64,000 nt of DNA, from IMG/VR virus record IMGVR_UViG_3300008266_011401; one strand, 5' to 3'. Shown in pieces: positions 1 to 48,454 of the stretch (position 1 is the stretch's first letter; each line of letters opens with the position of its first letter). The notes beneath the pieces were generated by a model that saw only the letters and a list, made by a program, of their open reading frames with translations, did no database searches and was not told the origin of the DNA. This stretch comes from an uncultured virus (IMG/VR IMGVR_UViG_3300008266_011401) (Duplodnaviria; Heunggongvirae; Uroviricota; Caudoviricetes). The translations under genes were made by a program, and so were the position numbers.

Positions 1-98
1 ACCACAAAAATGATAAAACGATAATAGAAAATGATAAAACGGACCTTTCCTATATAGGGCACGATATGAGGTATTTTCTGGTATAATATAGGGTATAA

Positions 99-136
99 AG
101 ACAAAAACATCATGACTATTATCATGATGCTTGTCT
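99..136 (-). terminator. Probable intrinsic terminator
   Basis: CATCATGA(108-115)/TCATGATG(122-129) inverted repeat, followed by a T run on the minus strand, just downstream of the 161..637 stop. Confidence 0.5.
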
Positions 137-160
137 ATACCTCTCTTGTATCTATATTAT

Positions 161-637
161 TTATTGTTGGTGTGACCGATAGCTCTTTCTATACTTTACC
201 GGTAATGCCACACTATATTCTTTCATACCTAATATAAGTTCTTTTTTAGATATGCCTGCATATTTCTTTAAGAGATAGATGTACTTCCCCACGAACCTAC
301 TATCATGATAATCATATCCTAATGCGTGGACCATTTCATGTATAAGGGTTATCATATCTCGTTGGGTAGGCGCTAGCTCTATGGTTTGACGATCACACCA
401 GGAATAATAAAAGTTTTTCCCACGTGCTTGTGTATGATATATGCCTTTACCAAATCGTATTTCAGGAATTAAATACTTTCCATTTGACTCATTATCCCAG
501 ATGAGTTGACCCAAGGTACGGAGTCTAGTAATAGGTAATTGTTTAATAAATGGTTTATATTCCGGTTGGTAAAAGAACTCGCCCTCGAACTTATACAATC
601 GTCGGGTATTAATCATTTCACGATATTGTTTGTCCAT
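161..637 (-). CDS. Zn-metallopeptidase-like protein (SprT/M48-like)
   Basis: LIHEMVHA (HExxH) followed by HD..F motif. Confidence 0.55.
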   Translation of the reverse strand: MDKQYREMINTRRLYKFEGEFFYQPEYKPFIKQLPITRLRTLGQLIWDNESNGKYLIPEIRFGKGIYHTQARGKNFYYSWCDRQTIELAPTQRDMITLIHEMVHALGYDYHDSRFVGKYIYLLKKYAGISKKELILGMKEYSVALPVKYRKSYRSHQQ

Positions 638-731
638 TCTCTTTTTGCTCCGCTTTCTTACAGAGTTGGTATTGATAGTATACTAACCAATAACCAATTC
701 CTATTGATACTAACCAAGCAATTGCCCACAT
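618..731 (-). CDS. Small membrane peptide (37 aa)
   Basis: Hand-translated MWAIAWLVSIGIGYWLVYYQY...; hydrophobic N-terminus. Confidence 0.35.
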   Translation of the reverse strand: MWAIAWLVSIGIGYWLVYYQYQLCKKAEQKENGQTIS

Positions 732-786
732 AACATTCTCTATTAATAGGTGTGTTTATATGTATCACCGACCTCTATGATTATAT

Positions 787-939
787 TCATAGATTTCCAT
801 CTACATCGTACCATTCAAACTTGGTAATCTTTGGCTTCTTATGGGTATACACTTCTTTGTAATCTTTCTGACCTTTCTTATCAGATTTATCGTTTTGCTT
901 CTTTGACCACTTGTTTTTATCTTTCCACGTTTTACCCAT
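787..939 (-). CDS. Small basic hypothetical protein (50 aa)
   Basis: Hand-translated MGKTWKDKNKWSKK...; AGGA upstream. Confidence 0.5.
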   Translation of the reverse strand: MGKTWKDKNKWSKKQNDKSDKKGQKDYKEVYTHKKPKITKFEWYDVDGNL

Positions 940-941
940 AA

Positions 942-1031
942 TTAATCCTTGTGACGGCGTTTAAACCACTTACCAATACCCATCAGTAACAGACCAAACC
1001 CAAATACAAACAGTCCCCACAGTTCGTCCAT
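942..1031 (-). CDS. Small membrane peptide (29 aa)
   Basis: Hand-translated MDELWGLFVFGFGLLLMGIGKWFKRRHKD. Confidence 0.4.
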   Translation of the reverse strand: MDELWGLFVFGFGLLLMGIGKWFKRRHKD

Positions 1032-1046
1032 ATTGTCATCGTTCAC

Positions 1047-1253
1047 TTAATTATCCTCGTCGAGCATAAGTTCGTCAGCGGTAAACTCCATTTCATACCC
1101 ATCGTTATCCAATCGAACATAGTATACATACTGACCAATATAATCACGATACTCATCCTCAGTGATTACCCCTGTCTTACCCTCATAGAAATCATCCACG
1201 GGTTCACTAATAATAACCTGCTCACCACGGTTAAACACTGGCGCCTTGGGCAT
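1047..1253 (-). CDS. Small acidic SH3/KOW-like hypothetical protein
   Basis: F..G..V....G..G.I pattern; AAGGAG RBS; directly behind a sigma70 promoter. Confidence 0.6.
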   Translation of the reverse strand: MPKAPVFNRGEQVIISEPVDDFYEGKTGVITEDEYRDYIGQYVYYVRLDNDGYEMEFTADELMLDEDN

Positions 1254-1283
1254 TTGTTTCTCCTTACGGTTAGGGTTACCTGA

Positions 1284-1312
1284 AATATACTACATTGTTA
1301 AGTCTTTGTCAA
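1284..1312 (-). promoter_or_regulatory. Sigma70-type early promoter
   Basis: Minus strand TTGACA-17 nt-TATATT. Confidence 0.8.
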
Positions 1313-1330
1313 GAGAACATTAAATATGAT

Positions 1331-1573
1331 TTATTTAGGATATACTTCTTCGTGACAATCTCTACATAGCTGACCAGACCCCTGTATATAATACAATCGT
1401 TCTTCTATTGGTGTTGATTTATTAATAGCTATTATTGTATTACAAGATATACAGCGTTCTGAATTACTTATTGCTTTTACATATTTGTATTTTTGAATTT
1501 CAGTGTCACGAATAATATATCCGATAAGGAAAACATATGTGACCGCGGTGGCGGCAATTAGTACGGTTATCAT
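1331..1573 (-). CDS. Hypothetical membrane-anchored Zn-finger protein
   Basis: N-terminal hydrophobic helix; CISC...CRDC. Confidence 0.55.
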   Translation of the reverse strand: MITVLIAATAVTYVFLIGYIIRDTEIQKYKYVKAISNSERCISCNTIIAINKSTPIEERLYYIQGSGQLCRDCHEEVYPK

Positions 1574-1574
1574 A

Positions 1575-2414
1575 TTACAATAAATGCTTTATTTGTTTTG
1601 CATCATAAAAGAAATCAGCAGTCCACTTACTCACACCCAACATTAATCGCTGACCCTGCGGGGTAAACTTACCCACCTTCCACAATTCATCAAGACACTT
1701 ATCGAATCGTGACCCCCATAGTTGAGCTTTGTATCGTGACTCACCATTGTCTGGTTCATATTTTAGATTATGAATATGTGTATGTGCCACCCCGAGAAAT
1801 GATAGGTAGGCGTGTAGTGAGGCAGACACAGGACGATTGGTAGGTTTGTTACCCACCGCAGGTTGTGCCGTGTTGGCGTAACTGTTTACAATAGACCAAC
1901 ACAATTCACTTTCGTGATTGAGGATAAACTCTTCTGTGGTAGGAAAGAATGTGTTTGCTCCCGTACCAAATCCCAACGCAACTAACTTCCAGTGCATCAG
2001 TTCGTGCACAAGATTAGCTAACGCAGCAACGGGATTGTACTGGTCAATTGAAGTCATAATTGCCCATGCCCCAGGATGACCAAATTCATTACCATCGTGT
2101 TGACCACTATAATTCTGACCCACTTCAAGATTAGGAACGATTACATCTACCAATCCACGGACATTATTATATCCCAACGGCCACACTTGCTGATAAATGT
2201 TAGCGAACGATTCAAAGTCTAAGGTTTTAATCGTCTGATAATCTTGTTCAGAACGAGGAACGATTGCAACCTTTCCATGAAACTTTGTCATAGACGACGG
2301 ATACTCAACAGGAACATATCCATTGTTCTTTTTAATCTTCGTGAATACATCTATGTCGTAACCATCTTCTTGTGGTTGTAAGATACGACTGTAATCAATA
2401 TCGTGAAATAACAT
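1575..2414 (-). CDS. aKG-HExxH-like peptide-modifying protein (paralog 1)
   Basis: LVHELMHWKL plus downstream RPVSASLHAYLSF, matching the HExxH...RP..LH.Y pattern; paralog of 47229..48083. Confidence 0.65.
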   Translation of the reverse strand: MLFHDIDYSRILQPQEDGYDIDVFTKIKKNNGYVPVEYPSSMTKFHGKVAIVPRSEQDYQTIKTLDFESFANIYQQVWPLGYNNVRGLVDVIVPNLEVGQNYSGQHDGNEFGHPGAWAIMTSIDQYNPVAALANLVHELMHWKLVALGFGTGANTFFPTTEEFILNHESELCWSIVNSYANTAQPAVGNKPTNRPVSASLHAYLSFLGVAHTHIHNLKYEPDNGESRYKAQLWGSRFDKCLDELWKVGKFTPQGQRLMLGVSKWTADFFYDAKQIKHLL

Positions 2415-3029
2415 TTATCTACCCTCCGGATGCATCCATCCAATTTTCTTTGAAATTTTTTCTTTAACAATATGTTCCGGCACACATGCGCCTAAACTTA
2501 ATACCACCCTTGGTCGGTTACCAACAACAGGGGTAGAACCGTGCAACCATTCCGATGCGTAGTTCATCCAACATTCACCTTCATCAACCCAATATTCTTT
2601 TCCATCAATAATTGGATTACCACCGATATCTGGTTTCTGTATCATGAAATTAAATCGTAAATGAATATTCCCATTACTGTCACGACTGTCTTGGTGTTCA
2701 TGCACACTACCACCTGTTAAGTTGACACCGATAAAATTTCCAAACTGTGGTTCTGGTAAAATATTAGAGACACCGATTTGCTCGTATACAATTTCTCTAT
2801 ACGCGGATACTATTTGTGACAGTTCCAGTTCTGGATATTTGGTAAGCATACAAAAGCGTCTGCTACACTTGGCAGCATCCGCTCGGGGGTCCATGTTATA
2901 TTTAAAATATTCCAATCCAGAGTGTAATGCAAAATCTAGGATTTTATTTTTTATAAAGGTAGGAATGGTGACATTATACTTTGGATTCATAATAACCTCA
3001 TTACATTGTACTTCAATACATATACTCAA
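2415..3029 (-). CDS. 2OG-Fe(II) oxygenase
   Basis: HQD...HGSTPV...R.VLS facial triad and 2OG-binding Arg; start may be at 2990. Confidence 0.75.
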   Translation of the reverse strand: MSICIEVQCNEVIMNPKYNVTIPTFIKNKILDFALHSGLEYFKYNMDPRADAAKCSRRFCMLTKYPELELSQIVSAYREIVYEQIGVSNILPEPQFGNFIGVNLTGGSVHEHQDSRDSNGNIHLRFNFMIQKPDIGGNPIIDGKEYWVDEGECWMNYASEWLHGSTPVVGNRPRVVLSLGACVPEHIVKEKISKKIGWMHPEGR

Positions 3030-3086
3030 ACGAACGGGAATACGCCCGTTACCGTAGTAACAGGCGTACCCACTATCACGTTTCCC

Positions 3087-4247
3087 TTAAACGTTAGAAA
3101 CGAAGTCAGCTTGCTCCCACGGTACACTAGCGGTAATGTTGGGGTTCACAAAGTACTTCTGCACCACTTGCCGCATGTACGTGCGTTCCGAATCATTACC
3201 ACCAGCGGGAGAGAAGAAGGGATAGACACACGCCTCAGCAGCCTCTGCGAGAGTGAACCCATCATTCAACAGACCAGCCATCTCTACCGTCATACGTGAT
3301 GAGATAGAAGTAGTAACCTTTGGATCTTCGCTACGAACCTGCGTACGAGTGTGGTCTGCAATCTCTGCGATTGCACGAAGCGCATCGGGATTAACCTCTG
3401 GATACGTCATCGTGAGAAGAGAAAGTTCATCGTCCCTGTTAAGCGGTTCCATCTCGACCACCGAAGCAAATCGGTCCATCATCGCTCGGTCAAGGACACG
3501 GGTGGCGGTGTACTCACTACCGATATTTGCCGTAGCGATAAACGTTACACCCCTCGCCACCTTAATCGTCGGCGTGTCTGGCATCTCATCAATGCGAAGG
3601 TAACGCTGGTTCTCATCAAGAACCGTCATCAGAATGTTCCAGGCGTCAGCGTGTCCACGCGTCAGCTCGTCAAGAAGAATGATGGCGTTGTCATCCTGAA
3701 TTGCCTTGACGAACAGAGCCTCAGCCACGAACGTACCCTTGTCCTTGCTGAAATGGGTATTACCGATAAGCGTGGAGCGGGGATCCTGTGTAGCGCCGAG
3801 GTTGAAGTAGTAGAACCGCCGGCCATCCAGCACGTTTGCGATAGTCTGTGCGGCGAGAGTCTTACCACAACCAGAAGGACCAGTCATCATAATGTTCTTA
3901 CCACGAAGTACCGAACGCATCAGATATCGCCACTTCAACGAATCCATAATCAGATGCGAGGGCTTGAGAGTTTCACAGTTCTTCAAAAACTCTACCACAT
4001 CATTTTCCAGTTCATTTTTCACATTCTCTACCTTCTTGGAGGGAACCGCAGTCTTGCGGAGAGCATCGTAGTCTGCCATATCAGTATCACGCCACTGCGT
4101 ACGACCAGTCTTGGTGTTCAACATACGGAGTGCAGTACCGTTTGCGTTGGCTCGCTTTCGAGCGTGGAGTGGAATATCAACAGTCATGTCATTGCCATGC
4201 TGGTCAATTGCCGTGAGATTATCCAGAACCTTTACAAGAGTGGTCAT
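3087..4247 (-). CDS. MoxR/CbbQ/NorQ/CobS-type AAA+ ATPase
   Basis: GPSGCGKT Walker A, ILLDE Walker B, ATAN sensor, LDRAMMDRF arginine finger. Confidence 0.9.
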   Translation of the reverse strand: MTTLVKVLDNLTAIDQHGNDMTVDIPLHARKRANANGTALRMLNTKTGRTQWRDTDMADYDALRKTAVPSKKVENVKNELENDVVEFLKNCETLKPSHLIMDSLKWRYLMRSVLRGKNIMMTGPSGCGKTLAAQTIANVLDGRRFYYFNLGATQDPRSTLIGNTHFSKDKGTFVAEALFVKAIQDDNAIILLDELTRGHADAWNILMTVLDENQRYLRIDEMPDTPTIKVARGVTFIATANIGSEYTATRVLDRAMMDRFASVVEMEPLNRDDELSLLTMTYPEVNPDALRAIAEIADHTRTQVRSEDPKVTTSISSRMTVEMAGLLNDGFTLAEAAEACVYPFFSPAGGNDSERTYMRQVVQKYFVNPNITASVPWEQADFVSNV

Positions 4248-4290
4248 AATTCCTCAGAGAGTGTAGTTGGTCGTGAACTTCATACTCTGT

Positions 4291-4329
4291 AATATAATAC
4301 GGGGACTCATCATAAGACAAGTCCCCGTA
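4291..4329 (-). promoter_or_regulatory. Sigma70-type promoter inside an inverted repeat
   Basis: TTGTCT-18 nt-TATATT; perfect 10-bp IR TACGGGGACT(4298-4307)/AGTCCCCGTA(4320-4329). Confidence 0.6.
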
Positions 4330-4373
4330 CATTAGGATTCCATTAATGTTACAATTGTATTAAATAGTATTTA

Positions 4374-5744
4374 TTAATATACTTCTGTCCATGATAAGGT
4401 ACACCCAACATCGGTACTGGTTCCTGTCATATTCTTCATAGCGAGTATATAAATTTCGCTATCATTACTAGGAATATTTTGTGAGATGAAATTTACTTTT
4501 TGGTTGACCACAGGGGTTTGTTGTTGACCTGCCACATTGTTTCCACCACCAACACCACCTGCGAAAATAAATCCACCAGAAAGTTCTTGACCACCAGTAT
4601 AGGCTGTTGCAGTGACATTGTATTCTACCACCGAGTTAGGATCAAAAGACACCCAACTACCACCTGTTAGTGACGAGGATTGTGGCAGTTTAACTAATTT
4701 GTATTGGCAGGTTTGGTCCTCAGTAAATGCACTCGCGGCGGTAACTCTAACGAATGCACGATTTGGTACACCACTATATGAATTCTTTAAACGGATTGCC
4801 ATCACTGGTAATGTAGATCCAGATGATACTGGACGTAACGCAGGGCTACCAAATGCAAAACTGATACCTTGTTCTTCGTATCCACCATCACTCAACACGG
4901 TAGAACAAATCTGCTCCATACTACCTGTTGCGGCAGGTGCGGATGTATTCACAATTTCACATCGTACTGGAAGGTTTGGATTTGCCATATATACTACGTC
5001 TGTTGTGTTTGAGTGGTCAAAGGTGTGACAGATTACGGTAATACCTTTGTGTACAAATCCACAACGAACACGACCAACACCTAACCATTGAAAGTCGGTG
5101 TAGAATAGTTGTGTTTTGGTAACATCAAACGTAAACGGACCAGATAATAAATTATTAACATTCCAATTTTCTTGTTTAACACGATTTTCTACTATTGACC
5201 CAGTTCCATTGGTAGATGAACGAATAACAAATTGTAAACTTCCAGTTTGGTCCTGTTCTACGAAAATACCATTAAAATCATCAAAATAACCCGTACGTTT
5301 TACTACACCAGGTTCTGCGGTACCGAATATAAAACTACTGAGAATAGTCTGGCTTTTTCCAGGTAAATAATTGTGATACATTTTTGTTTGATGTATCGCT
5401 CGGCTACCGGATGTTAAACTGGTTTTTAGTGTGACCGATGCTCTGTTCACATTGAAAGTTAAGGACGCTGCACTTGATGTAAAATCTACGAAATTTTTGT
5501 CAATGGAATAAATGTGTTTGTAGTCATTGAGAGTAAATGGGATTGCTACACGTTGACGACCGAATGCATCATACAACGGGTCTACTGAACCACTGCTCAG
5601 TGTTCCACCTTGTGAAGATTTGAACACACCAAGATTATTGTACAAATGTAATAATTCCCATCCATCCTTACCCTTTTCATTCATATTATCCAATGCGTTT
5701 GGTAATAATGATGGAAGTTGGTCTATTTTATATTGTATTGACAT
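4374..5744 (-). CDS. Putative virion structural protein (beta-rich)
   Basis: Ser/Thr/Gly-rich, DAFGR motif, C-terminal W.E; start refined to MSIQYK; ACTATTTATA motif upstream. Confidence 0.5.
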   Translation of the reverse strand: MSIQYKIDQLPSLLPNALDNMNEKGKDGWELLHLYNNLGVFKSSQGGTLSSGSVDPLYDAFGRQRVAIPFTLNDYKHIYSIDKNFVDFTSSAASLTFNVNRASVTLKTSLTSGSRAIHQTKMYHNYLPGKSQTILSSFIFGTAEPGVVKRTGYFDDFNGIFVEQDQTGSLQFVIRSSTNGTGSIVENRVKQENWNVNNLLSGPFTFDVTKTQLFYTDFQWLGVGRVRCGFVHKGITVICHTFDHSNTTDVVYMANPNLPVRCEIVNTSAPAATGSMEQICSTVLSDGGYEEQGISFAFGSPALRPVSSGSTLPVMAIRLKNSYSGVPNRAFVRVTAASAFTEDQTCQYKLVKLPQSSSLTGGSWVSFDPNSVVEYNVTATAYTGGQELSGGFIFAGGVGGGNNVAGQQQTPVVNQKVNFISQNIPSNDSEIYILAMKNMTGTSTDVGCTLSWTEVY

Positions 5745-5770
5745 GTATATTACCCAGAGAAAGTCCAGTA

Positions 5771-5780
5771 TATAAATAGT
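5771..5780 (-). promoter_or_regulatory. Putative late promoter motif ACTATTTATA
   Basis: One of four identical intergenic copies, 27 nt upstream of an ATG. Confidence 0.55.
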
Positions 5781-5792
5781 ACAAATGTAAAG

Positions 5793-5826
5793 AAAATCCC
5801 CCGCCAACTCTGACGGGGGATTTTTT
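5793..5826. terminator. Intrinsic terminator (possibly bidirectional)
   Basis: AAAATCCCCCG...CGGGGGATTTT hairpin flanked by A/T runs. Confidence 0.8.
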
Positions 5827-6118
5827 ATTTTTCTGCCGTTATATTTAAACTATTTTGTACTCTGTCAATCAATCCTTTGGCGAGTTGTTCCAGTTCACCA
5901 ATACAGTAATTATTCTTTCGAACTTTCCACGGTTTATTCAAATCGGCATATAACTCACTGACTTCACCGGTTTGTGTGTTGTAATGTAAATACAACCCAT
6001 ACATCATTGCACCCAAATTCCCTGAATCGTGTTTCCGTTTTCGATACAAATATTTCGAGAAACGATTTAGATGCTCCGCCAATGTCTCATTGCCGTGTGG
6101 CCAACTGATATGTGTCAT
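5825..6118 (-). CDS. Hypothetical protein
   Basis: 97-aa ORF translationally coupled to the vWA gene. Confidence 0.6.
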   Translation of the reverse strand: MTHISWPHGNETLAEHLNRFSKYLYRKRKHDSGNLGAMMYGLYLHYNTQTGEVSELYADLNKPWKVRKNNYCIGELEQLAKGLIDRVQNSLNITAEK

Positions 6119-8376
6119 TAGGACTTTTTGAGTAGAAGGTTATTCATAGTACGAAGTACCTCAGTTACATTCTGCACATTCACAAACACAGCGTTTTCAC
6201 CATACATCTTTTTGAAAGCGATATGCGAATAGCTGTGGGGTCTGCTAGTTACGTACTCAGAAATGAAATACGACATAACCTTGACACCAGCATCACGCAT
6301 CGCTTGTACCTGTCGCCGTGTATGATTGAATGCTTCCTCACCACCATAACTACGATATTCACCACCACGACGAACAGATGTACCAGGTTCACCATCCGAA
6401 AAGTTAATGAAGTACGTATCGTATTCACCAGAGCATTCCGTAATAAGGTCTAGCGTTGCGTTGAAGCACAATCCCTCAGGAGTAGAACCTGTCGGACACA
6501 GAGAAGGAAAGAGGTTACGAACCTTTTGGAAATTATCAACTCGACTGTCATGCACCACAGCGACCATAGGAATTTCACTATCACCACGAATCGTAACAAC
6601 AACTTCAATATTACGAATTTTACTAGCGACATAGGACAATGCAGTAGCCACGGTAATACACTGTTCCCACTTCCTGCCACTCATAGAACCAGACGCGTCC
6701 AGAGACAGATGGAGCATCGCAGGCTTAAAGTTTTCAACCGTGGTTCGCTTGAACACACTCTCAATATCCATACCCAGCTGAGCGAGGATACGGCGGTCAA
6801 TACGACCGTGATCCTGACGGGTAAATGTTGTTACAACAGGATCGTTACGAACCTGCAACCTATGCACAAGAACCTGACCCATACGAACACCAGATACCAC
6901 TGCATTCTTGTTACGTTCAGTAGAGTACAGAACCTTTTCACCCTTATGATGCGTAACATGCGAAAATGGGAAGAACTCCGACTGCATAATTTGTTTATTA
7001 ATTTTACGTGTAACAAGACACGGGAACATACCGACAATCTTATCACCAGCCTCAACAATCTTCGCATCTGCGGATTCGAGATGCTGAATGTCAGCCCGTT
7101 CCTTCGCCTTCAACTTCTTACGACGATTCTGACCACGCATTACCTGCTCCATCTTCTTCATCGCATCCAACGCCTTCTTCTCATTGAACTTACCAGGAAC
7201 AACCGATGACTGCGTGTTGCCAATATCAAGATTTTCCAAGCCATCCAAATTCATATCAAACTGCACACCATCCATCTGAATCTGCACAGTTTGTGTGGAC
7301 GTATCCGAGTTAGCCTTTTGCATCTGCTGTTCATAATCGCCAATGTGCTTCATAATTTCATACAGTACATCATTGGCAACAGTCCACAACGGTGGGAGGG
7401 TTTCGTAATCCAACAACGTAATATACGAAGGGCCGCCCGAATATGATTTACTACCACCATTGATATACCAGTTTTGCCAAGGAGAATTGGTGAACGAAAA
7501 ACTCCACTCAGCAAAACGTTCTGGCATCCGCTTAGTAATATCAAATCGGCGGATATTCTTCAAATCAATCATACCGACCATCTTAGACAGCCCGGGCAGT
7601 GCATTGCGGTCAAAGTTCGGATGAAAAATATTAATCAACCAGTTCGTGTAATTCTGAAACGTAGGAGTACGCCACGATGGATTGTGCTTCAAGTTTTTGG
7701 TAACTTCGGTATTAAAGAAATACTTGGTATACATCGCATCGTAATAAGGACGATACCCCGATGCGTTCTTATACACATACGAATCAATACGACGATCTTC
7801 GATTACGTTCATAATAACACCCAACATCTTCTGCATCGCCAGCACCTGCAAACGAATTTTGTTGAGGCCGATATCGTTACGATTATAATCAATCTGATAA
7901 TCGGGATGAAGCAGACCACGGAGTTCAGGACTCAACGCAATGTAGCACTGCTCCCAATTCTTCTCAGTAATCAAATGTTCCAACATATTGAAATCCGAAA
8001 GGAGACAATGTGACCCCTCGTGTAGTGCAAGACCCACCATAGAATCGAAATGTTTCGAATCATCTTCAGCAGCAATTACAACACGCTTACCATCGGTATA
8101 CGAATCCTTGCCGGAAGAAAAAGCCACTTCAATCGTTTCATCGTTGGTGAGAATACGAACAAAATTAGCAATAGCTCGACGAACAGAGGCAAGCTTGACA
8201 ATACGCTCTGGATTTATAAAGTCATCTTTGATTGTAGATGTGGTGTACTCATCATCATCAAAATCCATCCAATACGAACTGTAATTAGTAGCCTGCTTCT
8301 TCTTAACACCTGTCCGCGTGTTAAGTGTCCACAGAGTTTCTTGTTCATATGTGTCGTAGTATCTTGACATAATCAC
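6118..8376 (-). CDS. vWA-domain protein with N-terminal HExxH metallopeptidase-like domain (MoxR partner, CobT-like)
   Basis: HEGSH...NVIEDRRI; MIDAS DASGSM, TPE, FSDGEP. Confidence 0.85.
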   Translation of the reverse strand: MIMSRYYDTYEQETLWTLNTRTGVKKKQATNYSSYWMDFDDDEYTTSTIKDDFINPERIVKLASVRRAIANFVRILTNDETIEVAFSSGKDSYTDGKRVVIAAEDDSKHFDSMVGLALHEGSHCLLSDFNMLEHLITEKNWEQCYIALSPELRGLLHPDYQIDYNRNDIGLNKIRLQVLAMQKMLGVIMNVIEDRRIDSYVYKNASGYRPYYDAMYTKYFFNTEVTKNLKHNPSWRTPTFQNYTNWLINIFHPNFDRNALPGLSKMVGMIDLKNIRRFDITKRMPERFAEWSFSFTNSPWQNWYINGGSKSYSGGPSYITLLDYETLPPLWTVANDVLYEIMKHIGDYEQQMQKANSDTSTQTVQIQMDGVQFDMNLDGLENLDIGNTQSSVVPGKFNEKKALDAMKKMEQVMRGQNRRKKLKAKERADIQHLESADAKIVEAGDKIVGMFPCLVTRKINKQIMQSEFFPFSHVTHHKGEKVLYSTERNKNAVVSGVRMGQVLVHRLQVRNDPVVTTFTRQDHGRIDRRILAQLGMDIESVFKRTTVENFKPAMLHLSLDASGSMSGRKWEQCITVATALSYVASKIRNIEVVVTIRGDSEIPMVAVVHDSRVDNFQKVRNLFPSLCPTGSTPEGLCFNATLDLITECSGEYDTYFINFSDGEPGTSVRRGGEYRSYGGEEAFNHTRRQVQAMRDAGVKVMSYFISEYVTSRPHSYSHIAFKKMYGENAVFVNVQNVTEVLRTMNNLLLKKS

Positions 8377-8398
8377 CTTTCGTTTAGGGTATACTATA

Positions 8399-8433
8399 AA
8401 GATATATCCCCCTCACCGAAAAGGAAAGGGGGA
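8399..8433 (-). promoter_or_regulatory. Promoter-like element inside an inverted repeat
   Basis: TTTCCT-17 nt-TATCTT; IR TCCCCCT(8407-8413)/AGGGGGA(8427-8433). Confidence 0.45.
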
Positions 8434-8467
8434 CATCATTACGTTTTGATTAATATTGTAATAAATA

Positions 8468-9382
8468 CTATTTAACAAATATACATTGTTTATTACCTTT
8501 TTTAATTACCTTGTAAGGTGTTGCCGTTACATCAGTTAACGTATGTATGGTAAATACTGGTGTATCAATTGTGGCTACACCATATTCCGCGGTCCACGTT
8601 ATTTCCCAATCCAACATCTTACATAACATATTATATTCGTATCCATATCCATATTTCGTTGCAATACCAAGATTTTCCAATGCAATTCGTTTAGATTCGG
8701 TACAATTAAATGAACACGGTAAATGTGTAACTAACTTTAACCCAGCCCATCGAAGAAGATTACTAGCCCAGATTGGTGTTGTTTCAGGTAATTCGATAGC
8801 ATTATATTCACCAAGAATATTTTCTGCTTCAACATAATCGGATGTATTGGTAATTGTACAGGCTGCTTGTTGCCACGTTGTATCAATACCACCTCGTCGC
8901 ATCCACACTTCCGTAAAATGCTCTGAACAACAATGTGGGTATCCTAATCCACGACCAATGAGATATTCTCCCATAAATACATCACGTTCACGAGTTTTCC
9001 AGATGTCATTCCACTTGGAAACCAATTCTGGTTTGGTTACAATAGAACGCCATACAAATTGTGCCTGTCCATCCCACGGAAGTGAGTGATTACCGTAGTT
9101 ACCACTCATATTGTCTGCTTCTTTGTTTAGTAAAACAATCTCCAATCCATATTTACGAAATTCTGCACGTTTTTGTTCAACATCGGCGGGTCGAATAAAC
9201 AATAAATGTGCATCACGAGTTCCTTCAATTACCGAAAGATATTCAATGTGGTTGAATACGCCAACGATATTAGACATTAATTTTCTGTATTTATCCGCGT
9301 CTTTTTCATATTCTTGTTTAAAAGAAATATTAGTAAAGTTTGGACGTTCAATGTCTGTTTTTATAATCTGCATAATTACCAA
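8468..9382 (-). CDS. Cys-motif protein, DUF483-like
   Basis: GRGLGYPHCCSEHF and HLPCSFNC motifs. Confidence 0.5.
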   Translation of the reverse strand: MVIMQIIKTDIERPNFTNISFKQEYEKDADKYRKLMSNIVGVFNHIEYLSVIEGTRDAHLLFIRPADVEQKRAEFRKYGLEIVLLNKEADNMSGNYGNHSLPWDGQAQFVWRSIVTKPELVSKWNDIWKTRERDVFMGEYLIGRGLGYPHCCSEHFTEVWMRRGGIDTTWQQAACTITNTSDYVEAENILGEYNAIELPETTPIWASNLLRWAGLKLVTHLPCSFNCTESKRIALENLGIATKYGYGYEYNMLCKMLDWEITWTAEYGVATIDTPVFTIHTLTDVTATPYKVIKKGNKQCIFVK

Positions 9383-10395
9383 TTACCCAACTGTATGAGG
9401 TCTATTAATTTCGGAATAACTGTCTTTGGCGATGCTTGTTCTAATATTCTACGTTGTCCATTATAAGCAATATTATTTAGTCGCCATTTATTACTAGGTT
9501 TAATCCATTCTCTGTGTGCTTTAATTATCTGGTCGGCTGCTCTCATTGGATTGGAAGCCATACCAATAGACAGCCGTGAACCAACAGGTACGGCAATATA
9601 ATGATAGTTGGGTATTAAGTCAATAGCCAGATGATGCGTGTGTTCATATAACATAACGGGAAGTCCCAATGTCCACAATTCATGTTCACGGGAACACCAC
9701 TGATGTCCTGGTAGTCCTAGATTAATTGTATGCGTCGCTGCTTTTCTAAAAAAGTCTTGCATTGGAAGTTTTTTCTCTGTACTACCAACACAAACCTCAT
9801 CGGGATATTTGTATTCCAGTGCGGATATTACTTCTCTAATTTTAACCCCATCGTGTAAATAATCATCACGATTATTTCCAAAGAAAAATACTCTATCGTC
9901 CAATTGAGATGAATTTCTAATATCTTGAATTTCTTCAATCATAGATTCAACAACATTTGGATAATATGGGAAATAAACAAATGGTAGTAATTTCGTAAAA
10001 TCTAACCACGGATTTTCGTGATGATAACGTTCCAGCGAATACTGACCAAGTAACGACATGACATAACCTGGAAGTGTTTGTAGATACCGCGTCACAGATG
10101 GAGCGTCTTGTAAATCTACAATAACAAAATTTTTTGTTTCGTCGTTAACTATTATAAACCATAGGGAGTCAGGTATATACGGTCCATTTGAACTTACATT
10201 AATATCCACTTCTGGAATGTATAACACCTTATTGTCTGCACACAAATTAATATAGGTAATATTTGCTTCGTGTCCCATATCAAACAGTACAGTTTTTAAT
10301 TCATACGCCAGAAGTTCGGTGAAATATGTGTTGATACCAACTGGACTTGGATTATGTCCCTTATGTGCTGGATGATATATTGTGTAACTCGCCAT
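9376..10395 (-). CDS. Putative glycosyltransferase (GT-B-like)
   Basis: FFFG...R, L.LPG..CSRE.E...G.P, L.PN.HY, IA.NG pattern. Confidence 0.5.
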   Translation of the reverse strand: MASYTIYHPAHKGHNPSPVGINTYFTELLAYELKTVLFDMGHEANITYINLCADNKVLYIPEVDINVSSNGPYIPDSLWFIIVNDETKNFVIVDLQDAPSVTRYLQTLPGYVMSLLGQYSLERYHHENPWLDFTKLLPFVYFPYYPNVVESMIEEIQDIRNSSQLDDRVFFFGNNRDDYLHDGVKIREVISALEYKYPDEVCVGSTEKKLPMQDFFRKAATHTINLGLPGHQWCSREHELWTLGLPVMLYEHTHHLAIDLIPNYHYIAVPVGSRLSIGMASNPMRAADQIIKAHREWIKPSNKWRLNNIAYNGQRRILEQASPKTVIPKLIDLIQLGNW

Positions 10396-18994: not shown

Positions 18995-20224
18995 TTAGAA
19001 AATTCTGTATTGTAAATCAGCGTTGACTGCTTTGTATCCCCACTTTTTAACAGCTGCGTCATATTCTGCTCCGTGGTTACCATCAATTGCTTGACGCATT
19101 GCCAATCCACCGGCGAGTGTACCCATTGGATGTCCATGCATTGCACCACCAACATTTGCCATCCAGTTATGACTATCAAGTAATCCGTTAATGTGCTGCA
19201 CCAATCCAGGATGCATTCCACAACTGAGTGCGGGGATAACATTGTAGTTCCACAACACCTTCAAGGCGTCTTGTAGTTCTGTGTCATCCTGATTCATATA
19301 CCCACCAATCATACCTGCGTGGATAGAGTCTGCACCAGACCACCCTGCAATCTTACAGATAACGGGCCAGTAGATATGATTCGGAGCACGACGGTCAGTG
19401 AAGAATTTATCCCCAGACTTCTGAAAGTGAATCCACAGATTAGGATTCTGTTTACGGATTGCACGATATGCACCCAACCCACTCCACACATTAATATGAA
19501 CACCCAATCCACCTTCATCCGAAACGAATTGTGCTCGTTGTAGTGCGTACGGACTGTCACCATTAATACAGAATGTGTACATTACATTCGGGGCGTTATT
19601 CGCCAACCAGTTGGTAATCAGTGGAACTCTCTTTGTCAACGGACAATGTGCCGGACTACCAAGGAGTTCATCTTCTTTAATAAAGTTTACACCACCATAT
19701 ACCATTTCCTTCACGGCTTCTAACAATACTTCTGGACTCATTCCAACCTTGGGTTTGATAATACCACCGAAGAATGGTTTGCCCTCGACACCATTAAACT
19801 TACGGAATCCATCAATACCATATGCTGGTTTCAATGTAAACTGTTGTTCAATATGTGCAGGTAGTGTTACGTCCAATACATGACATTGCTCAATTTCCAG
19901 AATGTCTACTTGACCACCGGCGATGTGGCAGAGGATTTGTGAGATACCATCTTCTTCTAAGTCTAGATTTTCTAGTGGAAATGCGATATCAACTTCACCG
20001 GAAAACTTCGACTTTAATTCATTTTCATCAGCGAGAACAAAACAACTGTGGTCACGAAACATCTGGTCAGTTTCCCATACACTACGATTGTTTGGATTAC
20101 CGATGCTTTGACCAATTGCCAAATTCCACGCGGCATCTCGTAGTGAAGTTTTCCCTGCAAGGAAGTACTTAACTATAAAATATTTGGATAAATCAATATC
20201 TCTTGTAAAAATATTTACGCTCAT
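18995..20224 (-). CDS. RuBisCO-like protein (form IV)
   Basis: GGIIKPKVG, GGVNFIKEDE, GADSIHAG, PALSCG, GGAMHGHP.G. Confidence 0.93.
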   Translation of the reverse strand: MSVNIFTRDIDLSKYFIVKYFLAGKTSLRDAAWNLAIGQSIGNPNNRSVWETDQMFRDHSCFVLADENELKSKFSGEVDIAFPLENLDLEEDGISQILCHIAGGQVDILEIEQCHVLDVTLPAHIEQQFTLKPAYGIDGFRKFNGVEGKPFFGGIIKPKVGMSPEVLLEAVKEMVYGGVNFIKEDELLGSPAHCPLTKRVPLITNWLANNAPNVMYTFCINGDSPYALQRAQFVSDEGGLGVHINVWSGLGAYRAIRKQNPNLWIHFQKSGDKFFTDRRAPNHIYWPVICKIAGWSGADSIHAGMIGGYMNQDDTELQDALKVLWNYNVIPALSCGMHPGLVQHINGLLDSHNWMANVGGAMHGHPMGTLAGGLAMRQAIDGNHGAEYDAAVKKWGYKAVNADLQYRIF

Positions 20225-33092: not shown

Positions 33093-34190
33093 TTAAAATG
33101 CTATAATTTCACTGCCACCACCACCTCCACCGCCACCACCACTATCTCCGTGTTGTATGTAGGTATCTGTGTGTGGAATTATTTCCGTATCGGAATGAGG
33201 AATGTCTGAGTGTGGTACATATGTGTCATTATGAACTGGTGTATCCGTATGCTGTGTGTCGGTGTGTTGCACCTGTGTATCATTATGCACCGTATCGTTG
33301 TGTGATGTATCTGCGTGTGTTGTGTCGTTGTGTGTGGTATCCGCGTGTTGAACAACAACGGTATCTAAATGCCCAGCTGCTCCATCAGCACCAGGCGTCC
33401 CTGCTGCACCGGCAGGTCCTGGTGGACCTGGTGGACCTGGGGTCATAGCCCTATCCAACGCTGCTTGTGCTGATTGTGCCGCTGCAGCTGCGGAAGCCGC
33501 TGCAGCTTGAGCCGTTGCAAGGGCTTGTTGTGCTAATGCACGTACAGGAGCAACTTGTGATTCTACGTACGCTACAATTCTACGCCAATACGGACCATCA
33601 AGATATTCATAAATTGGTGTACCGACATCTTCTGCAAATATTCTGTTACCTTTTTTTGCCGTAGAATCTTCACGGGTACGTTGTGCTTGTGGAACGAATT
33701 TCGCATTTAAATGCGTTTCAATCATATCATTCAATTCGTTATTTGTTCTGAATAATTGACCCGTTGCCTGTGTTAACGTAGGTGTTTGTGGTGGTGTAAC
33801 CGTTACCGGAGTAGTATCCGTTACGGGTTGTGGTATTTCTTGTGCAGGTGTAAACGATTGTGGTGGATAGAAATTGGCACCAATACCCTTGTCAGGCAAC
33901 AATCGTAGGTATACACCACCTGGAGCGATTTCATCATAATCACCAGTGAACAATCCACTTCTGTATGCATTGAATAGTTCCTCTGCATCAACATAGTCTG
34001 GATTAATGAACACCCAACCACCCGAAGTTGTTGCGGTACTTAATACGTTGGCTGGTAAATTATTTAATTTACGAGTTTCCTCTGCACGTTCTGGTGTAAT
34101 TACTATACGGCTGTATTTGCCAGAATTAAATTCGGCTACATCCCCGGCTCCAGCCGCAAAATATATATCTTGTTTTGTTGGTATAGCCAT
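33093..34190 (-). CDS. Collagen-like protein with C-terminal His-x-Asp repeats
   Basis: Ala-rich helix, GPPGPPGPAGAAGTPGADGAAG, 13 HxD motifs, poly-Gly tail. Confidence 0.8.
   Translation of the reverse strand: MAIPTKQDIYFAAGAGDVAEFNSGKYSRIVITPERAEETRKLNNLPANVLSTATTSGGWVFINPDYVDAEELFNAYRSGLFTGDYDEIAPGGVYLRLLPDKGIGANFYPPQSFTPAQEIPQPVTDTTPVTVTPPQTPTLTQATGQLFRTNNELNDMIETHLNAKFVPQAQRTREDSTAKKGNRIFAEDVGTPIYEYLDGPYWRRIVAYVESQVAPVRALAQQALATAQAAAASAAAAAQSAQAALDRAMTPGPPGPPGPAGAAGTPGADGAAGHLDTVVVQHADTTHNDTTHADTSHNDTVHNDTQVQHTDTQHTDTPVHNDTYVPHSDIPHSDTEIIPHTDTYIQHGDSGGGGGGGGGSEIIAF
33144..33371 (-). repeat. Coding repeat of 13 HxD(T) motifs
   Basis: HLD,HAD,HND,HAD,HND,HND,HTD,HTD,HND,HSD,HSD,HTD,HGD. 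Confidence 0.9.
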
Positions 34191-40086: not shown

Positions 40087-40765
40087 TGGTTAGCTCTCGT
40101 TTAATTTCTTCTATTACATCACGAAGTTTGTGGGCTTCAATGAAGGGTGTATAATCAATATACGTTGGATTTGAAATTTTGTCAACATCTTCTTGTGTAA
40201 AATCAATCCCCAAACGTTCATTTAACTCTGGTAGATATTCCGTAGATGGTTTCTGCATCATTTCGTGGTCAACCATACTAACGTGTAATCCAGACTTTAA
40301 TAAATGTGGTTTAATTACATCGTAATAATATAGAATAGTTTCCAAAATATACTTTAATAAACTTCTGTCAAGTGGAATATTTTCGGGTGTTTCCAATTGC
40401 TCAGTTAAAAACTCTACCAGTGCTGCGTGTTCACCATTACCATTTTCCTGTGCATACGACAATAGTAACCAACTTGCAGCTTGTTGCGTGATATCCAATC
40501 TTTCGGCCAAAACAATTCTATCAAATGCATGCCACGGAAATGTCTGGTAATCTAATATATTTTTATAACTTGTCAATGTGGTACTGGTAATCTTAACAGA
40601 AAAATCATCCGTGTTCGTCATCATGTCTAATTTTTCTTCCACGGATTTTACAATCGGACCTTCGGAAAACAATTCCGAATAATCTGTTAAATTAAACTTT
40701 GTAGAGAAAAGTGTTCCCAACATACTTGAACACGTACGTGGGGTCGAAACAATAGCTACTCTCAT
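40019..40765 (-). CDS. Sulfotransferase-like protein
   Basis: STPRTCSS 5'-PSB loop, ELF, L.R.D...Q..S. Confidence 0.6.
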   Translation of the reverse strand: MRVAIVSTPRTCSSMLGTLFSTKFNLTDYSELFSEGPIVKSVEEKLDMMTNTDDFSVKITSTTLTSYKNILDYQTFPWHAFDRIVLAERLDITQQAASWLLLSYAQENGNGEHAALVEFLTEQLETPENIPLDRSLLKYILETILYYYDVIKPHLLKSGLHVSMVDHEMMQKPSTEYLPELNERLGIDFTQEDVDKISNPTYIDYTPFIEAHKLRDVIEEIKRELTNATEEETSTDEGNESIENEGTV

Positions 40766-45595: not shown

Positions 45596-46264
45596 TTAAT
45601 TAAAACCGAACCAATCACCGTAATGTGATGGGCGTACCGTACCAAAATCTGCACTTATACTTGCTGACAATCGTTTACTTCTTGGAATACACTTATGATA
45701 CCTTCTGTATGGAATATACAACACATCCCCAGGATGTAAAGTGTACACCAAATCTTTTTTTAATAAATCATCATTTAAACAAATAACTTCATTTGGATTT
45801 CCGTTCCAAGTTTCTGCGTATACTGTCCAATCGGAAATTCCATCTAATTGTAATATTAACACATATTGGGAATCTGCGTGTGCGTGGAATGACTTGGAAG
45901 TATTTTTCAATCCACCGTAAATATTTGTACTGACATATCTATTTTGTATCTGTGAAAATATATTTGATGCGTAGAATAGTCCTTTGGTATACCGTTCCAT
46001 TGCATTTAATATAAATGATTTACCATCATAAATTTCAGAAGCTATAGTTTTAGTAGGTGTACTACTTGTTTCTGTACTTCTGTATGTTTCTATTTTTGAT
46101 TTATTATCACCAATAATAACAATATCGGAATTGTGGTAATTATCATTTATATAACTTTCTACATTACTCCACGTAAATATAGATTTGGGTGTACAAGAAT
46201 TGGTAAGAACAAATGTACGTTCTTTATCTTCAATAATTTTTTCAAAAACTACATCGTTTACCAT
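45596..46264 (-). CDS. JmjC/cupin 2OG oxygenase (RoxA-like)
   Basis: HAD...LQLDG...W...L.PGDVLYIP...H. Confidence 0.82.
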   Translation of the reverse strand: MVNDVVFEKIIEDKERTFVLTNSCTPKSIFTWSNVESYINDNYHNSDIVIIGDNKSKIETYRSTETSSTPTKTIASEIYDGKSFILNAMERYTKGLFYASNIFSQIQNRYVSTNIYGGLKNTSKSFHAHADSQYVLILQLDGISDWTVYAETWNGNPNEVICLNDDLLKKDLVYTLHPGDVLYIPYRRYHKCIPRSKRLSASISADFGTVRPSHYGDWFGFN

Positions 46265-46623: not shown

Positions 46624-47229
46624 TTACTCCTTTACAAAAGCAGTTTCTTCTGGATTAATTCCTATACTTTCTACATAATATATTTTGTGATTCACTTTTA
46701 ATTTTATTGGTAATTTCCAATTAGTGAAGCTATCTTCCCACCATCGTACCCGATTGTTTGGCATGGCTGCGAGATACCCCTCTTCCGACACCAACATATT
46801 AAAACTTTTATCTTGTTGTGGTGCGTTGGAATAACCATCATCATAAAATTCGATTGCCCATCCCAATCCACGGCCGGAAAATTTGTTACCGTGCGAATCT
46901 ATCCACTCAGCACTTAATCCTTTGGAAAACTTCATATCTATAATACCAAATTCTGTACCGAAACATCCCCACACTTGATGAGTATGTAAATTTTTTGCAG
47001 GAGGTATTTGTTTGGTGGTATCTTGTCCAATAACAAGTCCGTGAATGGGTACACCACGATATTGTGCACCATTTTCCAATAACACAGAAAATGTCAACGC
47101 CTGTGTGGGTCTAACCGATACTGCATGAATAATACAATTATCTAGTCCAGTGTCCGTTCCATTGGTAATAAATTCACGACGAACTTTACCATATAAGTGA
47201 TACGGAAGAGATGCGGTCAACGAATACAT
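46624..47229 (-). CDS. Hypothetical protein
   Basis: 201-aa coupled ORF; GA...P.H, PNNR. Confidence 0.6.
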   Translation of the reverse strand: MYSLTASLPYHLYGKVRREFITNGTDTGLDNCIIHAVSVRPTQALTFSVLLENGAQYRGVPIHGLVIGQDTTKQIPPAKNLHTHQVWGCFGTEFGIIDMKFSKGLSAEWIDSHGNKFSGRGLGWAIEFYDDGYSNAPQQDKSFNMLVSEEGYLAAMPNNRVRWWEDSFTNWKLPIKLKVNHKIYYVESIGINPEETAFVKE

Positions 47230-48083
47230 TACATTAATTTGGATAATGTTTTAAGTGTGTCTTTATATTCTTCTTGATAATCACGAGTCCATCGGTACAA
47301 TCCAAGAAGTAATTGTGCTCCCTTTTCCGTGGTATGTGCCTTTAACATCAAAGCCTCCAAGGATTCGTTCAATCTGTCTCCCCACTTCTTCGCGTAACCC
47401 AACCAATGGTAATGTGCTTTAAAATCGTGTTGTACGAAACGTAGAGATACTTCAGCTTCACCTAAGAATGAGGCATATGCATGAAGTGACGCACTAATGG
47501 GACGGCCTGATGCTTTGTGTCCAACAGCAGCTTGTGCTGTGTCATCATAACTATTCACAATAGAGTGATGTAGTTCTTCAACTGGATTTAAGACAAATTC
47601 ATTATTGTGATGTAACATATCGAATACTTCTGGTGTACATCCCTTTCCAAATCCTAGTGCTGTAAATTTCCAATGAATCATTTCGTGATACATGTTTCGA
47701 ACCGTAACCACTGCATCACCAGGAAGAGGAGCCATAACAATCCAAGAATTTGGATATTCAACTGCCGCCAACTGACATGAGAATTCGTTCCTATCGGCTG
47801 CAAGTTCGATTGGAGTGAATACATCCACTAAATTTGTTATGGTATTCCATATAGTAGGTACTGCTCGTGGAGCAATTTGTGCCAATGTATTTAAGTGAGA
47901 ATCGTTATTGGCAAATGAGGTGGGTAATGTAGATGGATTAAAAGAATGAACATACATACCAGAAACTTTCTTATATGGAAATTCTTTTTTAACAAATCCC
48001 TTTTGCAACTTAATTTGTTTAAACACCTCTACATCATAACCATCGGGTTGTGCTTGGATAACCCTACTATAATCTATTGTCAT
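47229..48083 (-). CDS. aKG-HExxH-like peptide-modifying protein (paralog 2)
   Basis: YHEMIHWKF plus RPISASLHAYASF. Confidence 0.65.
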   Translation of the reverse strand: MTIDYSRVIQAQPDGYDVEVFKQIKLQKGFVKKEFPYKKVSGMYVHSFNPSTLPTSFANNDSHLNTLAQIAPRAVPTIWNTITNLVDVFTPIELAADRNEFSCQLAAVEYPNSWIVMAPLPGDAVVTVRNMYHEMIHWKFTALGFGKGCTPEVFDMLHHNNEFVLNPVEELHHSIVNSYDDTAQAAVGHKASGRPISASLHAYASFLGEAEVSLRFVQHDFKAHYHWLGYAKKWGDRLNESLEALMLKAHTTEKGAQLLLGLYRWTRDYQEEYKDTLKTLSKLM

Positions 48084-48454
48084 AAAACCTCTTCCCATGC
48101 ATACTGGGCGTTTAATTTAAAGGTACCGACATATCCACCCCAGAACGCTTGAGCAGGATTTACCAGTGATATAAAAGCAGATCCATTTTGCTTCTTATAT
48201 AGATAGTAAGTATCCCCAATATTCGGCTTAAAACTTATTGAACTTTCATACAACATTTTATTGATAGAATATTCTCGTACCAACTTTTCATAATCCCGTA
48301 CAACAACATCATACCGTTCTTTAAAATAATGTTTAAACGTGGGAGACACTTCTGCTTTCCAAGTATCAACATCAACTGGATGAATTGTTGCTGGTGCGTT
48401 AGGTGTGATTCCATACGTTAATGCGTTTGGATTTTTATTTTCATCATCGTTCAT
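48080..48454 (-). CDS. DUF2452-like protein
   Basis: F.P.IG.TYYLY, G.FKL....W. Confidence 0.55.
   Translation of the reverse strand: MNDDENKNPNALTYGITPNAPATIHPVDVDTWKAEVSPTFKHYFKERYDVVVRDYEKLVREYSINKMLYESSISFKPNIGDTYYLYKKQNGSAFISLVNPAQAFWGGYVGTFKLNAQYAWEEVL

Follow-up and report, generated by a model that had tools for sequence, protein, structure and literature searches.

The 64,000-nt window analysed here, the whole stretch of DNA taken from the uncultured Caudoviricetes virus record IMGVR_UViG_3300008266_011401 (IMG/VR), encodes two abutting minus-strand genes. One is for OG, a putative Fe(II)/2-oxoglutarate (2OG) oxygenase with a double-stranded beta-helix (DSBH), and the other is for HExxH_A, a protein with the predicted fold of the aKG-HExxH (alpha-ketoglutarate-dependent HExxH) peptide beta-hydroxylases. 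The evidence as a whole is best explained by OG and HExxH_A forming one bifunctional Fe(II)/2OG oxygenase unit that probably modifies proteins, possibly the fibres of the phage itself, and we put the probability of this reading at roughly 0.6. Enzymes of the aKG-HExxH type were recognised only in 2024 and, in the portions of the literature available, have been studied only in bacterial clusters for peptide natural products. The features on which the argument depends most directly are the following.

1575..2414, minus strand: HExxH_A, 279 aa, a predicted divergent aKG-HExxH-type oxygenase (HELMH at nt 1992–2006; RPVSASLHAYLSF at nt 1797–1835)
2415..2990, minus strand: OG, a predicted 191-aa DSBH Fe(II)/2OG oxygenase (H99-x-D101...H150...R161)
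2412..2427, minus strand: junction GGAGGG-N4-TAA-ATG, with the OG stop abutting the HExxH_A start

HExxH_A carries HELMH at aa 137–141 and RPVSASLHAYLSF at aa 194–206. An earlier note on this DNA, made from the letters alone, had placed the second motif about 55 aa after the first; both motifs are present, and the actual spacing between H141 and R194 is 52 residues. A bare HExxH motif is frequent by chance, and the assignment is credible because the evidence is at the level of the family, namely a match to TIGR04267 (E 7.2e-9), a profile–profile alignment (E 3.5e-6) and a fold comparison (Z 18.9). TIGR04267, the NCBIfam model named 'aKG-HExxH-type peptide beta-hydroxylase', was the sole match of HExxH_A in the sequence libraries. 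The hidden Markov model (HMM) search that the earlier note had proposed as a check found the family, at 35.9 bits, under the curated cut-off of 40 bits. Because of this shortfall HExxH_A is treated as a divergent clade and not as a member by the curated threshold.

The same model was matched by 22 of the 27 close homologues of HExxH_A and, at E<=0.001, by 69 of 71 aligned distant relatives (best E 4.9e-26), this alignment holding 71 of the 150 profile matches listed. The profile search, which covered 1.84 billion representatives, returned 172 proteins at E<=0.001 and only five at E<=1e-30, from which it follows that the phage clade is sharply set off. HExxH was invariant in all close (27/27) and all distant (71/71) aligned relatives. 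Among the latter, H137, E138, H141, G148, R194, P195 and G254 were invariant and H201 was present in at least 90 %; roles in binding Fe and 2OG are assumed for these residues. Alignment by hhalign with seven bona fide bacterial TIGR04267 members (above the cut-off, from 8 of 301 genomes) had a probability of 87.6 % and brought into register HExxH, R194-P195...H201-A202 and the C-terminal (L/F)TxxG, which reads F250-T-P-Q-G254 in HExxH_A. Between HExxH and RP the phage clade has a longer insert, which bears an invariant ELxxSIVNSY.

An AlphaFold2 model of HExxH_A, based on 27 homologues, had a predicted local distance difference test (pLDDT) score of 90.8 and a predicted template modelling (TM) score of 0.91. 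In a Foldseek search of the PDB, all five matches at E<=0.001 were SjiH (22ob) or ChlB-HExxH (8s5f), with a probability of 1.00. VIA-align gave a Z of 18.9 to 8s5f_E (root-mean-square deviation 3.2, 224 of 279 residues aligned) and 18.1 to 22ob, against 8.6 for the best unrelated chain. No match at E<=0.001 was found among the viral structures of BFVD. Structure prediction had also been suggested earlier as a check, and the zincin fold is not the best match of the model; together with the aligned TIGR04267 motifs, this upholds the placement of the protein in the HExxH-domain family rather than among ordinary zincins. On the model, then, HExxH_A is a divergent, virus-restricted clade of aKG-HExxH oxygenases with the ChlH/SjiH fold, and fold and motifs point to a hydroxylase rather than a protease.

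The listed open reading frame (ORF) of OG begins at TTG 3029. The likely start is ATG 2990 (MNPKYN...), giving 191 aa, because 23 of 23 aligned homologues begin there (MNP[KR]...). The OG model (pLDDT 91.7) is a DSBH, and Foldseek returned 233 PDB chains at E<=0.001, all 2OG oxygenases among the matches listed. VIA-align Z values of 12.4–14.0 were obtained with SnoN, Pseudomonas putida prolyl 4-hydroxylase (P4H), an algal P4H, the collagen prolyl hydroxylase of PBCV-1, BesD/HalA, WelO5 and PHD2; these structural neighbours, the EF-Tu prolyl hydroxylase included, are statistically tied within 1.5 Z. H99, D101, H150 and R161 were invariant in 24 of 24 sequences, and their position in the fold family suggests that they provide the HxD...H facial triad and the Arg for the C5 carboxylate of 2OG. 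The sequence itself matched no Pfam or NCBIfam family at E<=0.1 and gave a weak match only to phrog_13746 (unknown function), while a PDB sequence search returned nothing relevant. The fold and the invariant HxD...H...R bear out the description of this upstream gene in the earlier note as a 2OG-Fe(II) oxygenase. Judged from the model, OG is a small and intact Fe/2OG oxygenase in the size range of prolyl-hydroxylase/PHD-like enzymes, and its fold appears to give no substrate class.

The two genes are closely coupled. On the minus strand GGAGGG (2427–2422) is followed by TAA (2417–2415) and ATG (2414–2412), so the reported abutment of the HExxH_A start on the oxygenase stop was correct to the nucleotide, with no gap between them. 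The GGAGGG ribosome-binding site lies inside the OG gene, 4 nt ahead of its stop, and this arrangement of the sequence indicates translational coupling. A homologue search yielded 72 proteins, all from metagenome or viral contigs, of which 14 are 450–479 aa long and are OG–HExxH fusions with OG first. Because relatives fuse both genes, the coupling appears stronger than was known from the window. A maximum-likelihood tree of 70 proteins separated group A (44 proteins, including HExxH_A) from a paralogous group B (26 proteins) with full support, and the fused state changes twice on this tree. Among 33 group-A loci the two genes were adjacent in 20 (3–8 nt between alignments) and fused in five; three had no OG and five were too short, leaving 28 informative loci. 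These counts include four loci identical to the window and two at 99 % identity. Complex prediction for OG with HExxH_A (score 0.00, mark 0.32) was evidence neither way.

Family loci numbered 14 in IMG/VR and 51 in metagenome contigs, and the 185,579 species-representative genomes of prokaryotes contained a single one, on a contig of a metagenome-assembled genome. The HExxH clade is restricted to viral or metagenomic DNA. No match to window positions 1–9500 (megablast) or to the 279-aa protein (tblastn) was found among 50,697 GenBank phage records. The window also holds the group-B paralogue, and near it a second cupin-fold oxygenase gene.

47229..48098, minus strand: HExxH_B, 289-aa paralogue, in the replication module
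45596..46264, minus strand: JmjC_2 cupin oxygenase

HExxH_B is 37 % identical to HExxH_A (tblastn E 5.7e-47) and scores 23.9 bits against TIGR04267. Its module has the conserved order polB, DUF6065, ligase, Mom, DUF2452, HExxH_B, (phrog_3704), p120, (JmjC), clamp. In 20 of the 27 informative loci the JmjC_2 gene lies downstream of HExxH_B at a distance of two to three genes. Both paralogues tend to pair with a cupin-fold oxygenase, since OG adjoins HExxH_A and JmjC_2 lies near HExxH_B. A role in DNA modification was considered as HExxH_B neighbours Mom-family genes, and no positive evidence for it was found. The Mom-family, DNA-modification-like genes of the window are at 40762–41589 and 48451–49041 (minus strand), one of them two genes upstream of HExxH_B. 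The DUF6065 protein (50546–51808, minus strand; E 1.7e-70) lies beside the DNA polymerase and has a weak SET-like region at its C-terminus.

In the available parts of the publications (PMC12636437, PMC13060819, PMC12707348), aKG-HExxH enzymes are described only from bacterial clusters for RiPPs (peptides synthesised on ribosomes and modified after translation), as the earlier note had broadly stated, and our literature search found no phage aKG-HExxH enzyme. The characterised members are reported there to place the hydroxyl group on the beta carbon of Asp, His, Phe, Gln or Pro. HExxH_A shares with ChlH/ChlB-HExxH (8s5f) and SjiH (22ob; TIGR04267/IPR026337) the fold, HExxH, R-P-x2-[GA]-x2-H-A and (L/F)TxxG. 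It differs from them in its identity of 13–17 % and its score below the HMM cut-off, and its spacing from HExxH to RP is 52 residues against about 25–30 in bacterial members. Unlike ChlH it is encoded by a phage and is coupled or fused to a DSBH oxygenase with no adjoining radical S-adenosylmethionine (radical-SAM) enzyme, and no small precursor peptide or RiPP recognition element (RRE) was recognised for it, in contrast to ChlH and SjiH. The targets that ChlH hydroxylates, according to the accessible text of PMC12636437, are His and Asp of a cyclophane scaffold, and these are the residues of a phage HxD repeat described below. The stand-alone enzymes PflC/PosC and PesO (PMC12636437, PMC13060819, in the portions available) resemble HExxH_A in being single proteins. 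In vitro they require Fe(II), ascorbate and aKG, and they hydroxylate runs of a repeated residue (consecutive Gln) or Pro; unlike HExxH_A they are bacterial and depend on a leader peptide, and PflC also cleaves the backbone oxidatively.

The closest parallel to the pairing itself comes from the biphenomycin pathway, in which, as far as the accessible part of PMC12707348 reports, the cupin-fold 2OG oxygenase BipG (JmjC) and the aKG-HExxH hydroxylase BipH act on one peptide. This resembles both OG with HExxH_A and HExxH_B with the JmjC gene at 45596–46264. Pairs of the BipG/BipH type are, in the same partial account, encoded separately in bacterial RiPP clusters that also hold a precursor peptide, protease and transporter, whereas the phage pair is coupled or fused and has none of these nearby. 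Enzymes of the MicC type, which use aKG, likewise occur together with aKG-HExxH genes, according to the available text of PMC12912966. OG resembles small DSBH enzymes of the P4H/PHD type (P. putida 4j25, algal 3gze, PBCV-1 5c5t; Z 13.5–14.0) in its core of about 190 aa, its HxD...H and its distal Arg, and the candidate substrate holds a GPPGPPGP stretch. Identity to the P4Hs is 8–15 %, however, with no Pfam match, and the ties with SnoN, BesD/HalA and WelO5 single out no prolyl hydroxylase.

That candidate substrate is a fibre-like protein, here termed the HxDT fibre.

33093..34190, minus strand: fibre-like HxD protein, candidate substrate

It contains 13 HxD motifs, 11 of them HxDT, at aa 274–349 (nt 33144–33371), preceded by a collagen-like GPPGPPGPAG... 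stretch of seven triplets (aa 252–273, nt 33366–33437); an Ala-rich stretch is also present, and poly-Gly lies behind the HxD run. The gene is a mosaic. A small conserved domain with a coiled coil stands alone as 92 aa in the related genome G302 (45551–45826), the version in loci L110/L116 adds collagen-like, HxD and poly-Gly parts, and the version in the window has an extra N-terminal domain.

Similar repeats were found beside peptide-modifying enzymes elsewhere. In L066, the most distant locus found by profile, the gene order is a protein with long HxD repeats that resembles tail host-specificity proteins, a second HxD-repeat protein, a radical-SAM/SPASM enzyme, a DUF483-methyltransferase and an HExxH protein, which scores 49.2 bits against TIGR04267 and so lies above the 40-bit cut-off. 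For the radical-SAM enzyme of L066 the highest scores are to peptide cross-linkers, among them DynA, AmcB, YhhB and GrrM. L141 has the five genes of L066 in a different order. In L105 an HTD-repeat ORF precedes an HExxH homologue, behind which lie neck and tail-sheath-stabiliser genes of the T4 type. Among 36 viral stretches picked by an HxDTxHxDTxHxD DNA pattern, several of them near-duplicates, 30 held a dense HxD ORF, 20 that radical-SAM enzyme, 17 a DUF483 protein and one an HExxH gene. Their DUF483 proteins are homologous to g304, a DUF483-like protein of the window (E down to 8e-28), for which the ESM Atlas returned only DUF483-like viral clusters of unknown function. DUF483–HExxH fusions made up 13 of 147 distant HExxH representatives, two of the 13 adding a radical-SAM domain, and the Pfam domain DUF483 was present in two of the 71 aligned relatives.

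Record G307 represents the same phage as the window and is longer and colinear, at an offset of about 5,080. Its tail-fibre module, about 20–27 kb beyond the window end, encodes three H[TS][DN]-repeat proteins, collagen-like fibres, a radical-SAM enzyme (E 2e-153 to the radical-SAM profile; about 83 kb from HExxH_A) and a DUF483-methyltransferase. The relative G304 has the same cluster of radical-SAM, DUF483 and repeat genes. There is, then, a recurrent phage module (G307 88.2–96.7 kb; G304 100.9–109.8 kb; also L081–L116, L066 and L141) in which His-x-Asp/Asn-repeat tail or fibre proteins are followed by radical-SAM/SPASM and DUF483(-methyltransferase) genes. A literature search found no publication on a radical-SAM/cyclophane module with phage tail fibres. 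H-x-D/N repeats occur in the window protein and in the G307 proteins, and H-x-D would fit the aromatic-x-x motif of triceptides; His-x-x cyclophane motifs occur in triceptides and a His-Ala-Ser cyclophane is documented, in the accessible part of PMC12912966. Triceptide systems have radical-SAM/SPASM maturases that form three-residue cyclophanes (ChlB, YhhB, AmcB and GrrM, for example), and peptide maturases that form cyclophanes or cross-links give the best scores for the radical-SAM enzyme beside the HxD tail proteins. Triceptide substrates, however, are small leader–core peptides, whereas the phage candidates are big fibre proteins of the virion in which the repeats number in the tens, and the phage module differs further in its constant DUF483(-methyltransferase) partner. 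The phage of the window also differs from ChlB/ChlH in that its HExxH genes are far from the radical-SAM gene. As a separate observation, several radical-SAM ORFs of the module (L066 5376–6623, L141 10599–12011 and others) themselves end in H-G-D/H-x-D runs, for example ...HGDAPHGDEHGDH, which resemble the presumed substrates.

A mechanism can be proposed from these comparisons. Both domains of the unit would bind Fe(II) and 2OG, and the side chains that they hydroxylate would belong to one protein or peptide; the unit probably decorates proteins. The most likely substrate class is fibre proteins encoded by the phage itself, those of the His-x-Asp/Asn-repeat and collagen-like kinds, a tentative choice to which we give somewhat less than even odds; the candidates are the HxDT fibre and the HTD/HTN-repeat tail-fibre proteins near the radical-SAM/SPASM and DUF483-methyltransferase genes. 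The HExxH domain would hydroxylate Asp or His of the H-x-D units, perhaps once these have been cross-linked by the radical-SAM enzyme in the manner of ChlB/ChlH. The DSBH domain would act on a different residue, for instance Pro in the GPP stretch. In a broader scenario, which we regard as doubtful, phage fibres are matured by RiPP-type chemistry in which H-x-D/N repeats, often placed behind collagen-like segments in the tail-fibre or whisker-like proteins of numerous uncultured phages, are cross-linked by a radical-SAM enzyme with a DUF483 partner and then hydroxylated by an aKG-HExxH enzyme, and in the lineage of the window a duplicated HExxH enzyme with a recruited, in some members fused, prolyl-hydroxylase-like DSBH domain hydroxylates the collagen-like and H-x-D parts.

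Two other explanations of the pair have to be weighed, one concerning the chemistry of HExxH_A and the other the target of the unit. That the 279-aa protein is a zinc metalloprotease (zincin) processing a phage or host protein, with an independent oxygenase as its neighbour, is highly improbable. HExxH is the zincin signature, the same gene block holds an HExxH mini-protein (161–637) and the HEGSH motif of a CobT-like protein, and the available text of PMC12636437 reports that the family member PflC also hydrolyses peptides under some conditions and can do so with truncated peptides. The next Foldseek match after the aKG-HExxH structures was the putative zinc peptidase 4l7a, but this match is weak (E 0.058, probability 0.16, TM score 0.21 against 0.52 for aKG-HExxH), and the Z values to 2OG-dependent HExxH oxygenases stand against at most 8.6 elsewhere. 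The RP..HA motif, common with TIGR04267, is invariant or nearly so, and a protease would have little reason to be fused repeatedly to a 2OG oxygenase. Several results nevertheless weigh against the preferred reading of a fibre-modifying oxygenase unit. On the side of the enzyme these are the TIGR04267 score under the cut-off, the lack of any Pfam or PHROG family for HExxH_A, the lack of a PDB match by sequence with either the single protein or a profile, the three group-A loci with no OG despite at least 669 nt of upstream sequence, and the lack of an RRE/PqqD-like peptide-recognition domain among the window proteins.

On the side of the substrate, no ORF that was HxD/N-dense or collagen-like lay within 8–10 kb of any of 65 group A/B loci, and 31 kb separate the HxDT gene of the window from HExxH_A. 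In the syntenic genome G302 (131 kb, 67 % complete) g304, OG and HExxH_A are retained, but the HxDT position is taken by an ORF of 92 aa that lacks repeats; its 131 kb of sequence yielded neither a repeat or collagen-like protein nor a radical-SAM gene. The records available for this phage clade are 17–72 % complete. No radical-SAM homologue was found within the window, and radical-SAM genes adjoin HExxH genes only in the distant relatives L066 and L141, with fusion in 2 of 147. The lack of repeat genes around the 65 loci and the state of G302 favour an auxiliary or host-takeover enzyme. Its targets would be host proteins (prolyl hydroxylases and JmjC ribosomal oxygenases, for example, act on translation factors or ribosomal proteins) or else small molecules such as free amino acids, and the HxD repeats would have nothing to do with it; we consider this an unlikely but serious contender. 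It gains from the position of the pair among non-fibre genes (AAA+, CobT-like and small proteins), from the position of HExxH_B in a replication module beside Mom-family and JmjC genes and from the many other auxiliary genes of the phage. The tied neighbours of OG also include enzymes of free amino acids and small molecules (BesD, HalA, WelO5, SnoN) as well as the EF-Tu prolyl hydroxylase. It loses by the fact that characterised aKG-HExxH enzymes are reported, in the accessible literature, with ribosomal peptide substrates only, that relatives are fused to DUF483 and radical-SAM domains and adjoin HxD tail proteins, and that PqqD-type peptide-binding domains (Pfam PqqD) occur in 11 of the 71 aligned relatives. 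A trimeric fibre could also use the repeats simply as metal-binding units, in the way that HxH repeats bind metal at the tip of the T4 long tail fibre. For the HxD protein, named as an in-window candidate substrate in the earlier note, the outcome is divided: L066, L105, L141, the DUF483 fusions and the G307 cluster give it circumstantial comparative support, G302 and the 65 loci speak against it, and it stays a candidate.

Relative to the literature searched, three observations are new: an aKG-HExxH clade that is confined to viruses and duplicated, so that each genome carries two paralogues; a recurrent natural DSBH–HExxH fusion that joins two unrelated Fe/2OG oxygenase folds in one polypeptide; and a comparative link, across dozens of phage contigs, of the wider HExxH subfamily, DUF483 and cyclophane-type radical-SAM enzymes to His-x-Asp tail proteins. 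The fusion is a ready-made test object for the cooperation of two chemistries. If the comparative link to the tail proteins holds, phage host-recognition fibres would bear enzymatic cross-links and hydroxylations, with a bearing on fibre stability, metal binding and host range, and DUF483 would be assigned a function. In the broader RiPP-type scenario, peptide-natural-product enzymology would operate on virion structural proteins and perhaps give rigid, metal-binding or protease-resistant receptor-binding tips.

The source is a large uncultured freshwater phage. The window lies within a 78-kb virus record judged 41 % complete, from which a genome of roughly 190 kb follows. The minus strand carries every gene of the window, and the content includes replication genes of the T4 type, a pair of Mom-family genes and a large cluster of sugar/glycosyltransferase genes. 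Around the oxygenase pair, group A has the conserved order g304 (DUF483-like), CobT-like, g97, virion protein, MoxR/CobS-like AAA+, OG, HExxH_A, g80, g68, ..., HEMVH protein. This order is retained down to about 50 % identity, and synteny inside one phage lineage proves little on its own. The remaining features of the region in the window are as follows.

8468..9382, minus strand: g304, DUF483-like protein, in the conserved block
6118..8376, minus strand: CobT-like protein, 752 aa, with weak matches to CobT vWA domains and an HEGSH motif
4374..5807, minus strand: virion structural protein (phrog_1645) within the conserved block
3087..4247, minus strand: MoxR/CobS-like AAA+ ATPase, directly upstream of OG
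3038..3071, minus strand: terminator-like hairpin of 15 pairs between the AAA+ gene and OG (a consensus match only)
1331..1573, minus strand: g80, 80 aa, with a hydrophobic N-terminal helix (by eye) and CxxC...CxxC
1047..1253, minus strand: g68, a 68-aa acidic small protein
161..637, minus strand: HEMVH mini-zincin-like protein, 158 aa, syntenic downstream

The gene for g80 starts 1 nt past the HExxH_A stop and is kept downstream in unfused relatives. It is missing from its usual position after the gene in all five fused loci, a homologue in one of them (L038) lying some 1.6 kb farther along. Of the downstream neighbours, g68 is the most constant and is also found behind fused forms. A promoter-like site, again a consensus match only, precedes the gene at 1047–1253, and this site and the hairpin at 3071–3038 fit a three-gene unit of OG, HExxH_A and g80 as far as such sequence signals go. 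Both small proteins were considered as RiPP-like precursors, an interpretation that was not adopted: g68 is without His and resembles a folded small acidic protein, and g80 is a membrane-anchored Cys4 protein that the fused loci lack at its usual place. The CobT-like protein has a weak TIGR04267 match of its own (E 1.5e-3) beside its HEGSH motif.

Other genes of the window were recorded in passing. A protein with a DruA (Druantia) domain (43420–44856, minus strand; PF14236, E 2.9e-23) lies between the sliding clamp and clamp-loader genes throughout the clade. The sugar/glycosyltransferase cluster at 15–33 kb includes a RuBisCO large-chain-like protein (18995–20224, minus strand; PF00016, E 2.9e-33), which is 88 % identical in the relative G302. 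A phage-encoded protein of 1046 aa (59637–62777, minus strand) combines a CarboxypepD_reg domain with an outer-membrane beta-barrel like that of TonB-dependent receptors.

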